Shown piece by piece: positions 42,033-43,229 of a stretch of DNA of 64,000 nt. Source of the stretch: Escherichia coli. Its GTDB lineage: Bacteria > Pseudomonadota > Gammaproteobacteria > Enterobacterales > Enterobacteriaceae. The translations under genes and the position numbers were made by a program. Each line of letters starts with the position of its first letter. Within the stretch, counting starts at the first letter, position 1. The notes under the pieces were generated by a model. It was not told where the DNA came from and made no database searches. It worked only from the letters and a program-made list of their open reading frames with translations. The stretch is taken from the NCBI RefSeq assembly GCF_003334255.1, contig NZ_QOWU01000002.1, one strand, 5' to 3'.

Positions 42033-43229
42033 ATGAAAACCTGGATATTTATCTGTATGTCCATAGCAATGTTGCTATGGTTTTTAAGTACGCTAAGACG
42101 TAAACCCAGTCAAAAGAAAGGCTGTATTGACGCCATTATACCTGCGTATAACGAAGGCCCGTGTCTGGCGCAGTCACTGGATAATCTACTGCGTAACCCT
42201 TATTTTTGCCGGGTAATTTGCGTTAACGACGGCTCCACGGACAATACCGAAGCGGTCATGGCGGAAGTCAAACGCAAATGGGGCGACCGCTTTGTTGCCG
42301 TCACGCAAAAAAATACCGGTAAAGGTGGTGCGCTGATGAATGGCCTCAATTACGCCACCTGCGACCAGGTTTTTTTAAGTGATGCCGACACCTATGTTCC
42401 GCCCGATCAAGACGGAATGGGCTATATGCTGGCAGAAATTGAGCGCGGTGCCGATGCCGTAGGCGGCATTCCCTCTACTGCGTTGAAAGGCGCGGGTCTG
42501 TTACCGCACATCCGCGCGACCGTAAAGTTGCCGATGATTGTTATGAAGCGCACGCTACAGCAGCTCCTGGGTGGCGCACCGTTTATTATCAGCGGTGCCT
42601 GCGGGATGTTCCGTACTGATGTATTGCGTAAGTTCGGTTTCTCGGATCGTACTAAAGTCGAAGACCTTGATCTCACCTGGACATTGGTGGCAAACGGCTA
42701 CCGTATTCGGCAGGCGAATCGCTGCATCGTATACCCACAGGAATGCAACAGCCCGCGTGAGGAGTGGCGTCGCTGGCGGCGTTGGATTGTGGGATACGCG
42801 GTCTGTATGCGCCTGCATAAAAGACTTTTATTTAGCCGCTTCGGTATCTTCAGTATATTTCCTATGCTGTTGGTTGTGCTTTATGGCGTTGGGATTTATC
42901 TCACTACCTGGTTTAATGAATTCATCACCACCGGGCCGCATGGAGTGGTGTTGGCAATGTTTCCGCTTATCTGGGTCGGCGTAGTTTGTGTTATTGGTGC
43001 TTTTAGCGCCTGGTTTCATCGTTGCTGGTTGTTGGTGCCTTTAGCGCCGCTTTCCGTTGTGTATGTATTATTAGCTTATGCCATCTGGATTATTTATGGA
43101 CTTATTGCCTTTTTTACTGGACGCGAACCTCAGCGCGACAAACCCACCCGCTATTCCGCACTGGTGGAAGCGTCAACCGCTTATTCCCAACCTTCTGTCA
43201 CAGGAACTGAAAAACTATCTGAAGCTTAA
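42033..43229 (+). CDS. yaiP: Membrane-bound family 2 glycosyltransferase, synthase-like (YaiP)
   Basis: 398-aa ORF; N-terminal TM helix, GT-A motifs VICVNDGSTDNT and LSDADTYV, VEDLDL, a WRRWRRW segment resembling Q/RxxRW, then C-terminal TM helices. Confidence 0.85.
   Translation: MKTWIFICMSIAMLLWFLSTLRRKPSQKKGCIDAIIPAYNEGPCLAQSLDNLLRNPYFCRVICVNDGSTDNTEAVMAEVKRKWGDRFVAVTQKNTGKGGALMNGLNYATCDQVFLSDADTYVPPDQDGMGYMLAEIERGADAVGGIPSTALKGAGLLPHIRATVKLPMIVMKRTLQQLLGGAPFIISGACGMFRTDVLRKFGFSDRTKVEDLDLTWTLVANGYRIRQANRCIVYPQECNSPREEWRRWRRWIVGYAVCMRLHKRLLFSRFGIFSIFPMLLVVLYGVGIYLTTWFNEFITTGPHGVVLAMFPLIWVGVVCVIGAFSAWFHRCWLLVPLAPLSVVYVLLAYAIWIIYGLIAFFTGREPQRDKPTRYSALVEASTAYSQPSVTGTEKLSEA

Follow-up and report, generated by a model that had tools for sequence, protein, structure and literature searches.

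The start of yaiX probably lies inside yaiP in Escherichia coli: a long same-strand overlap in the yaiS-yaiP-yaiX-yaiO operon

The yaiS-yaiP-yaiX-yaiO cluster of Escherichia coli, considered here in a window of 64,000 nucleotides (nt) from contig NZ_QOWU01000002.1 (assembly GCF_003334255.1), contains two neighbouring genes, yaiP and yaiX, the second of which appears to begin well inside the first. On the + strand, yaiS (41352-42023) is followed by yaiP (42033-43229), the open frame of yaiX (43075-43788) and yaiO (43790-44563), and then by frmRAB. A 1-kb fragment spanning the junction was matched by Megablast in 4917 of 5426 complete E. coli genomes, where the annotation reads yaiP, acetyltransferase and yaiO. 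The names yaiP, yaiX and yaiO, already given to these genes in the original prediction (a note made from the letters of the window), agree with the E. coli records that they match, and the K-12 equivalent of the middle gene is yaiX (b4579), which a curated record lists as yaiX', a pseudogene interrupted by IS2. YaiP is a processive GT2 glycosyltransferase with C-terminal membrane segments and a partial match to the PgaC/IcaA-like family of NCBIfam. YaiX, in the form of 230 residues (aa) favoured below, holds a 21-residue N-terminal extension, a Trp-Trp (WW) motif and then a left-handed beta-helix (LbH) acetyltransferase domain resembling the C-terminus of GlmU. Both are genuine protein-coding genes with homologues, and a search with the 236-residue open reading frame (ORF) of yaiX returned 520 homologues at E<=1e-5.

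Compared with yaiP, yaiX is read in the +1 frame, and this frame is closed upstream by a TAG at 43072-43074. As originally noted, its only in-frame ATGs are those at 43078 and 43096, both within yaiP, and the 236-residue translation has Met at residues 1 and 7 only; the overlaps of 152 and 134 nt derived from these two codons were likewise correct. A third canonical in-frame start, TTG 43105, also lies within yaiP and was absent from that account. Between the yaiP stop and the hexapeptide repeats there is indeed no ATG, GTG or TTG in frame, the next one being GTG 43348, inside the LbH repeats, although near-cognate codons do occur past the yaiP stop, such as the ATTs at 43246, 43252, 43267 and 43270. 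A conserved non-ATG start with a Shine-Dalgarno (SD) sequence downstream of the yaiP stop, named at the outset as the finding that would overturn a start inside yaiP, was looked for in the orthologue alignments and not found. At the other end of the gene, the 1-nt gap that was described from the stop of yaiX to the ATG of yaiO is real (43786-43788 versus 43790), and the SD:anti-SD pairing at this junction reaches -7.4 kcal/mol.

The boundary between both genes was compared in 24 further loci with the gene order yaiS-yaiP-yaiX-yaiO, anchored on the sequence TGGTGG that encodes the WW motif. Seven of them (group A) belong to non-enteric Proteobacteria, namely Pseudomonas, Acinetobacter, Sphingomonas and metagenome-assembled genomes (MAGs). 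The remaining 17 (group B, about 14 lineages) include Escherichia, Citrobacter, Salmonella, Enterobacter, Superficieibacter and metagenome contigs, as well as an apparently mobile second copy of the operon present in E. coli and Ignatzschineria. Distant YaiX homologues of 205-206 residues, mostly metagenomic, begin with MWWREL... or VWWREL..., while E. coli YaiX reads ...A-I-P-H-W-W-K-R-Q... at the same place. The WW motif sits 62-68 nt inside yaiP, and the yaiP Val codon that overlaps it is GTG in 45 of 45 pairs. The codon directly before WW (-1) is ATG or GTG in all seven group A loci and in two genomes of the Candidate Phyla Radiation (CPR), which have an MWW or VWW start without an adjacent yaiP, and in none of the 17 group B loci. 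The yaiP end differs in parallel. In group A, the TGA of yaiP ends at +11 nt from the first base of TGGTGG in 7/7 loci, giving a 14-nt overlap, RTGTGGTGGNNTGA, and YaiP terminates as ...RDKPTRYxxVV[ADEG]. In group B, the stop is found at +17, +32, +53, +68 (E. coli), +77 or +83, that is, 6-72 nt further downstream, and YaiP carries 2-24 extra residues. These junctions indicate that the ancestral arrangement was a 14-nt stop/start overlap, and that in the enterobacterial loci the two boundaries have moved apart.

An ATG at codon -22 (+/-1) before WW, the position of 43096, is present in 17/17 group B loci compared with 3/7 of group A, and the frame from this position to WW is open in every group B locus and closed by stops in three of the seven group A loci. 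The recurrence of both the ATG and the open frame in all 17 enterobacterial loci makes this pattern more than a matter of chance: when yaiP synonymous codons were resampled from local usage, the joint probability that 14 lineages keep both was about 5e-6, with independence of the lineages assumed. The ATG is created by a conserved YaiP dipeptide, [Y/H]-G, when this is encoded as NAT GGN. The Tyr/His codon holding it is TAT or CAT in 17/17 loci, and the Gly codon that follows is GGA in 17/17 of group B versus 2/7 of group A (background GGA fraction, 0.19), so that YaiX invariably has Asp or Glu as residue 2. Seven codons on, another Gly is encoded by GGA in 14 of the 17 loci, again yielding Asp/Glu in YaiX. 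Six group B loci carry a stop 1-5 codons upstream of the -22 ATG, and the overlap counted from this conserved start measures 83-149 nt across the 17 loci. Of the two ATGs proposed initially, 43096 is the one kept outside Escherichia, whereas 43078 is confined to that genus: Citrobacter has ACT or ACG at its position, and several other loci have in-frame stops between this position and the conserved ATG. Initiation at ATG 43096 would give YaiX the N-terminal peptide (M)DLLPFLLDANLSATNPPAIPHWWK. On the evidence of these alignments, ATG 43096, the codons next to it and the open frame behind it are conserved to a greater extent than the sequence of YaiP requires.

To examine the selection acting on the overlap, 11 representative yaiP genes were aligned by codons, and the use of the same codon among pairs with the same amino acid was scored in 9-codon windows. 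The gene-wide mean is 0.42 (standard deviation 0.10), and the two highest windows of the gene, 43164-43190 (0.862) and 43095-43121 (0.856), both fall within the overlap; synonymous constraint on yaiP over 43161-43190 amounts to 0.86. Between both peaks (43122-43151), the synonymous sites of yaiP are free to vary. The overlap can accordingly be described as three segments, S1 to S3, with different frames under constraint (Table 1). In S2, where the YaiP motif TGREPxRDKPTRY rules, there are 562 pairwise differences that are silent in yaiP but change the residue in the yaiX frame, and every silent yaiP change alters YaiX residues. In S3, the YaiX sequence (WWKRQxLIP...) rules, and the YaiP tail is variable both in sequence and in length. 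Synonymous-site constraint thus points to selection in two frames, except in the middle third (43123-43161), where no constraint of the yaiX frame was seen. Residue 357 of YaiP, just after the first Gly, is instructive in this respect, since it varies among L, F, P, I and T by non-synonymous and even radical changes that are synonymous or conservative in YaiX (GAC/GAT/GAA; TTA/CTA), a pattern that speaks for selection on the protein read in the yaiX frame and against a signal confined to the nucleotide level. Similarly, the region of the WW motif, although inside yaiP, bears the marks of selection in the yaiX frame. The original prediction had proposed orthologue alignments as a check for a conserved start and for synonymous constraint in two frames; both were found, with 43096 as the conserved start and the peaks of constraint inside the overlap.

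Within E. coli, exact matches to 30-mers of the overlap occur in 4825 and 4827 genomes, compared with 3501 (yaiP only) and 3717 (yaiX only) for those of the flanks, and these counts, from four probes only, are consistent with fewer changes being tolerated where two frames are read. Among close relatives, E. whittamii has 8 differences across the 134-nt overlap, which equals the gene average and shows no reduction; strain Ecol_745 has 0 differences across the overlap, with flanks that are likewise quiet.

Some copies of this region lie outside the chromosomal operon. A second, divergent yaiS-yaiP-yaiX-yaiO copy occurs in some E. coli (locus L024, on a contig of GCA_051165265.1), is near-identical to that of an Ignatzschineria MAG (L010) and is apparently mobile; a protein of the second-copy type (P0051) is plasmid-borne. 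It has the longest overlap, 149 nt, and the conserved ATG (MELLPFLLE) is the sole canonical start that precedes WW in it. The 30-mers at 43084-43113 and 43125-43154 are found in up to 7 copies in some genomes and at 11-25 places on plasmids, which means that a portion of the 3' end of yaiP has been duplicated or mobilised in a few strains.

Table 1. Features of the yaiP-yaiX junction (positions in the window; identities are given as nucleotide (nt), YaiX-frame and YaiP values).
Feature	Position	Strand	Remarks
yaiP coding sequence, 398 aa, stop TAA 43227-43229	42033..43229	+	ORF list; RefSeq annotation of identical DNA
yaiX coding sequence, best-supported form, 230 aa	43096..43788	+	start kept in 17/17 enterobacterial loci; K-12 curated record agrees
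Candidate dual-coding overlap, yaiP frame 0 / yaiX frame +1, 134 nt	43096..43229	+	
Escherichia-specific ATG, 236-aa version of KEGG and older records	43078..43080	+	E. coli and E. whittamii only; no SD
S1: YaiP Y-G-L-I-A-F-F-T-G = YaiX M-D-L-L-P-F-L-L-D; start embedded in TAT GGA	43095..43122	+	both frames constrained; identities (43096-43122) nt 0.86, YaiX frame 0.73, YaiP 0.78
T6 homopolymer in S1, only conceivable slippery site from yaiP to yaiX	43110..43115	+	in 11/17 group B loci
S2: YaiP R-E-P-Q-R-D-K-P-T-R-Y-S-A dominant; yaiX frame ANLSATNPPAIPH drifts as linker	43123..43161	+	identities nt 0.68, YaiX frame 0.37, YaiP 0.78
CAC (His), putative ancestral yaiX start position	43159..43161	+	ATG/GTG in group A and CPR loci
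TGG TGG, WW motif, conserved N-terminus of the YaiX family	43162..43167	+	at least 90% in 68-sequence alignment; TGGTGG in 24/24 loci
S3	43162..43229		identities nt 0.66, YaiX frame 0.56, YaiP 0.38
GCG (YaiP Ala380), putative ancestral yaiP stop position	43170..43172	+	TGA in group A
YaiP C-terminal tail, 19 aa, lineage-specific, ASTAYSQPSVTGTEKLSEA	43170..43226	+	read over yaiX codons; length varies between loci
CTG, start chosen in some RefSeq genomes by the Prokaryotic Genome Annotation Pipeline (PGAP), 197 aa, WP_002430650	43195..43197	+	3' of conserved WW; no SD
CTG, PGAP start in most RefSeq genomes, 193 aa, WP_024183734	43207..43209	+	AGGA 1 nt upstream
yaiX-yaiO junction: AGGAG SD 43779-43783, yaiX TAA 43786-43788, yaiO ATG 43790	43779..43792	+	

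The SD of 43096 is a UGGA provided by a conserved Trp codon of YaiP, 6 nt upstream, in a site that is AU-rich and the least structured of the candidates (free-energy difference, ddG, 6.3 kcal/mol), while no SD is seen at 43078 (+0.9 kcal/mol), ATT 43153 (+0.4) or CTG 43195 (+1.9). The SD of yaiP is also weak, and those of yaiO, frmR and frmA are strong. An argument for initiation from the SD itself was tried and dropped, the SD of 43096 being about background. Scans of 42700-43400 gave 0 promoter-like sites and a single terminator-like hairpin, as many as chance would give, while 41000-45000 matched no Rfam family; by these scans, an internal promoter or a known RNA element was rejected as the cause of the nucleotide conservation. 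In the full-text literature mentioning yaiP, no experimental data on the yaiX start site were found.

From these comparisons, a history of the junction can be proposed. In the ancestor, yaiX would have started with M/V-W-W and the TGA of yaiP would have stood within yaiX codons 4-5, an overlap suited to coupling by termination and reinitiation. In the lineage of the Enterobacteriaceae, the start before WW would then have been lost (CAC in E. coli), and initiation would have been relocated 63-66 nt upstream, to the ATG arising from the [Y/H]-G dipeptide of YaiP. The yaiP stop would also have been lost, so that YaiP gained 2-24 residues (in E. coli, 19) read over the opening codons of yaiX. Constraint would thereby have been handed over along the overlap, from both frames over 43095-43122 to YaiP over 43123-43161 and YaiX over 43162-43229. 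In YaiX, S1 would encode the peptide M-[D/E]-L-L-P-F-L-L-[D/E], followed by S2 residues that are free to change and probably form a disordered linker; in other words, selection would act on the first nine residues, whether for the peptide itself or for an initiation region, with residues 10-21 serving as a linker. The YaiP tail over 43162-43229, in turn, may be a dispensable, neutral read-through product. Translational coupling, which the original prediction named beside a dual-coded segment as an implication of the overlap, does not in its classical form of termination and reinitiation fit this arrangement: it calls for a downstream start no more than a few nt (up to about 15-20) from the upstream stop, and only the 14-nt overlap of the seven non-enteric loci is compatible with it. 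With a start 134 (or 152) nt upstream of the yaiP stop there is no plausible re-initiation, which implies de novo initiation while yaiP is being translated across the site. Initiation at 43096 would thus be independent of yaiP termination and probably of low level, at an AU-rich, weakly structured site.

The reading that best accounts for these observations, to which we assign a probability of roughly 0.7, is that translation of YaiX begins at ATG 43096, perhaps with a small share from 43078, and that 43096-43229 is a genuine dual-coding segment. It upholds the first of the options originally offered, a YaiX start within yaiP with a dual-coded segment, and draws on the -22 ATG and open frame of all 17 group B loci, the frozen synonymous sites of yaiP and the position of WW inside yaiP. 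Several observations weigh against it. The SD of 43096 is weak (-3.1 kcal/mol, for a background mean of -2.3), and the absence of an SD for yaiX has also been remarked elsewhere, with low expression being suggested (PMC13058169). In about half of the group B loci, a further canonical start occurs close to WW (an ATG between -4 and -2 or at +2, or a TTG at -3), so the -22 ATG need not be the sole start in them. The lineages entering the statistics are related, which makes the probabilities optimistic. The stretch of 12-13 YaiX residues separating MDLLPFLLD from WW is free of constraint, and residues 1-19 receive a confidence score (predicted local distance difference test, pLDDT) below 50 in the structure prediction; the extension may serve only to supply a start. 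Lastly, PGAP, which uses protein-family evidence, prefers CTG 43207 or 43195.

Other starts were weighed on the same alignments. The near-cognate ATT 43153, three codons before WW, could be the degraded descendant of an ATG and would give a protein of 211 residues, with a 77-nt overlap and an N-terminus resembling the ancestral MWW. Codon -3 is ATT, ATA, ATG or TTG in 12 of the first 13 group B loci, ATG being that of Enterobacter (MLPWW), and the YaiP Tyr codon that generates it is TAT in 10/10 genes (45/45 pairs); in Superficieibacter and Salmonella, ATG is seen at -4 and -2. After TAT, however, any next base gives Ile or Met, and the pattern fits a conserved hydrophobic residue of a longer protein equally well. 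Locus L028 has ACG at -3, and the site, which lacks an SD, is the most structured of the candidates (ddG 19). In E. coli, initiation at ATT or ATA is very poor, infC being the exception. Since a start at ATT 43153 would also leave the -22 ATG, the GGA, the next 8 codons and the open frame 57-66 nt upstream unexplained, it is considered improbable. Still less likely are the PGAP starts, CTG 43207 (193 residues) and CTG 43195 (197 residues), under which the overlap would shrink to 23-35 nt and the frame upstream would be a relic. They are annotated in thousands of genomes (cluster P0008 alone has 1845 members), and for the codon homologous to CTG 43207, three Citrobacter loci have GTG, Enterobacter has ATG and S. 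Napoli has TTG, with AGGA just upstream in E. coli. Yet this codon is GTA in C. cronae, its AGGA is only 1 nt away, CTG 43195 has no SD, and CTG is a poor initiator in E. coli. Both CTGs lie 11 and 15 codons downstream of WW, and thus lose a motif that is N-terminal in all distant homologues and at least 90% conserved. Upstream of them, moreover, where YaiX residues such as WWKRQPLIPNLL are encoded, the yaiX frame is better kept than that of yaiP (0.56 versus 0.38) and the synonymous sites of yaiP are frozen. Neither type of non-canonical start, the AUU of infC or the CTG of PGAP, therefore describes this gene, given WW and WWKRQxLIP upstream of the CTGs and the ACG at -3 in L028.

ATG 43078 would make a protein of 236 residues, with the 152-nt overlap, and is an unlikely main start even within Escherichia. 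It is the first ATG past the in-frame stop and is kept in E. whittamii, and the 236-residue form, when cloned and over-expressed from a vector, was active (PMC13058169). Apart from its replacement in Citrobacter, the in-frame stops found elsewhere before the 43096 position and the lack of an SD, the constraint on yaiP synonymous sites begins at 43095 and not at 43077, where the Tyr codon is TAT in 5 genes and TAC in 6. The least probable of all these explanations, with very little in its favour overall, is +1 ribosomal frameshifting from yaiP, whether at the T6 run or where yaiP stops, which would produce a YaiP-YaiX fusion. The yaiX frame is indeed +1 of yaiP, the overlap does contain a T6 run, an independent start has no strong SD, and assemblies with a 1-nt change at T6 encode such a fusion (cluster P0032, 27 members). 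However, T6 is absent from 6 of the 17 loci, E. whittamii, the largest E. coli cluster (P0001, MDLLPLLLD) and Salmonella-type loci being among those without it, and the context is not that of a programmed +1 frameshift of the prfB type, with no CUU-UGA and no upstream SD stimulator. Frameshifting would leave unexplained the conserved ATG, the stops just upstream of it in six loci and the Asp/Glu at residue 2, and if it took place at the yaiP stop the conserved WW would remain untranslated. In addition, yaiX has a start of its own in the non-enteric relatives and in the CPR genomes without an adjacent yaiP. The non-canonical start and the recoding considered in the original prediction are consequently not supported. 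As for the fusions, the 27 sequences of P0032, all from Logan assemblies, read YaiP ...YGLIAF and then continue in the yaiX frame (LLDANLS...), and probably reflect 1-nt length variants or sequencing errors at T6.

The preferred start, ATG 43096, bears directly on the annotation of YaiX, for which five N-termini coexist in public databases, corresponding to proteins of 236, 230, 197, 193 and 174 residues. The 236-residue form from 43078 is that of KEGG and older records (PMC13058169). In the curated K-12 record, yaiX' begins with the counterpart of ATG 43096 and the overlap is 134 nt; the coordinates are 382591-382872 for fragment 1 of yaiX' and 382739-383935 for yaiP (EcoGene/RefSeq). PGAP places its choices, CTG 43207 or CTG 43195, on DNA identical to the window over this part, and further gene callers give 230 residues, or 174 residues from a GTG found in some strains. 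The EcoGene/RefSeq entry thus uses the same start codon as the one supported here, although it concerns a pseudogene interrupted by IS2, gives the start without evidence and conflicts with PGAP (193/197 residues) and KEGG (236 residues). The K-12 annotation already contains the overlap; new here are the evidence for its reality, its history and the probable truncation of YaiX by current RefSeq/PGAP models. The codon homologous to CTG 43207 can be GTG, ATG or TTG in some relatives and GTA in C. cronae, and the 193-residue form starting there, the most widespread in RefSeq, lacks the conserved WW N-terminus, so that constructs, antibodies and structure predictions derived from it would be truncated.

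In the 230-residue form of YaiX, the LbH domain occupies residues ~42-217, with profile matches to Pfam LbH_EIF2B (4e-10) and Hexapep (8e-9) that identify it as an LbH-repeat protein. The C-terminal half of NCBIfam Arch_glmU matches at 3e-36, below the family cut-off, and this is a domain-level resemblance only. An AlphaFold2 model of the same form has pLDDT <50 over residues 1-19, high confidence from ~31 and beta strands from ~58, and its low-scoring N-terminus, which points to no structural role for the extension, is consistent with the latter being young and disordered. A more specific role is possible, though doubtful: M-[D/E]-L-L-P-F-L-L-[D/E] might be more than a side effect of the moved start, namely a selected functional element, for instance a short amphipathic segment docking the soluble acetyltransferase onto the membrane synthase YaiP, whose C-terminal codons encode it. 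In the window, YaiX has a Leu (CTT, 43393-43395) in FIRLGT where the other E. coli sequences returned have Pro (FIRPGT); this column is variable family-wide, and the Leu is probably a harmless strain-specific substitution.

The substrate of the YaiX acetyltransferase has been stated to be unknown (PMC13058169). According to an EcoGene note, repair of yaiX' causes yaiP-dependent clumping (PMC3531124), which implies that the intact gene is functional and fits an exopolysaccharide operon. Judging from the protein families and this one published note, yaiS-yaiP-yaiX-yaiO (deacetylase, synthase, acetyltransferase and outer-membrane barrel) would make and export a modified exopolysaccharide. Study of the uncharacterised polysaccharide that the operon probably makes requires the true YaiX protein to be known.

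Some observations concern the rest of the locus. The start of yaiS is annotated inconsistently, with 558 nt (185 residues) in K-12 and 672 nt (223 residues) from GTG 41352 in PGAP, the latter having a good SD (-6.2 kcal/mol). YkiC, a small protein of 39 residues annotated in K-12 and by PGAP in some genomes, lies on the minus strand at ~41890-42010, antisense to the 3' end of yaiS and upstream of yaiP. An antisense RNA inside yaiP has served as a lacZ control (PMC4666370). A protein of 348 residues from one Logan assembly (P0038) joins the N-terminus of TauA to the C-terminal half of YaiX, which implies a deletion from tauA to yaiX that would have removed yaiS, yaiP and the 5' end of yaiX in that strain or assembly. 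Downstream, the yaiO-frmR intergenic region (44611-44730) contains a C10 run (44611-44620) and a near-perfect palindrome at ~44672-44728, TATATACTATAGGGGGGTATGCATTGACATATAGAATACCCCCCTATAGTATAT, presumably the FrmR operator and promoter.

Compared with known systems, this overlap is unusual in its length. Among 715 cases of co-directional overlaps exceeding 60 bp in length, none was found to be real, and the longest real one was holD-rimI, with 32-56 bp (Palleja et al., PMC2478687). The yaiP-yaiX pair represents a counter-example to the systematic view that such overlaps are essentially always errors. Like yaiP-yaiX, holD-rimI consists of two real genes of one operon that overlap in part, on the same strand and out of frame; the overlap is Enterobacteria-wide, has a genus-specific length and is highly conserved in nucleotide sequence. 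Unlike it, yaiP-yaiX has at least double the length (E. coli, 134 nt; relatives, 83-149 nt), its origin can be reconstructed, and its constraint is distributed over three segments instead of being uniformly shared. Overlap-aware gene finders, and methods for detecting dual coding, might be tested on this clean split between frames, and single substitutions that are silent in yaiP (TAT to TAC, GGA to GGC) would hit only the start or the second residue of yaiX.

The same survey describes a class v, '5' and 3'-end extension' (PMC2478687), in which loss of a stop extends one gene at its 3' end and the other is extended at its 5' end, as is proposed here, and its rule comparing length with that of orthologues would flag this pair. 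That class, however, is treated as misannotation or sequencing error, whereas the yaiP-yaiX arrangement is fixed in a family-level clade (17/17), carries signatures of selection in the new frame and, in E. coli, has no alternative canonical start, as expected of an evolved state and not of an error. The mechanism matches the model of unidirectional overlaps of Fonseca, Harris and Posada 2013 (PMC3887535), based on the disruption of a start or stop and its replacement, with the differences that both events would have taken place at one junction and that the new start was already available in about half of the ancestors, to judge from 3/7 group A loci. There is also a likeness to overprinting, the new N-terminal 21 residues of YaiX being laid over older YaiP coding sequence. 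Short coupling overlaps such as ATGA and TGATG are a different kind, to which the ancestral 14-nt yaiP-yaiX overlap, in the same operon, belongs, and the 134 nt of E. coli do not. The comparison thus gives good support to yaiP-yaiX being an unusually long but otherwise ordinary same-strand partial overlap, which arose by a shift of gene boundaries together with overprinting.

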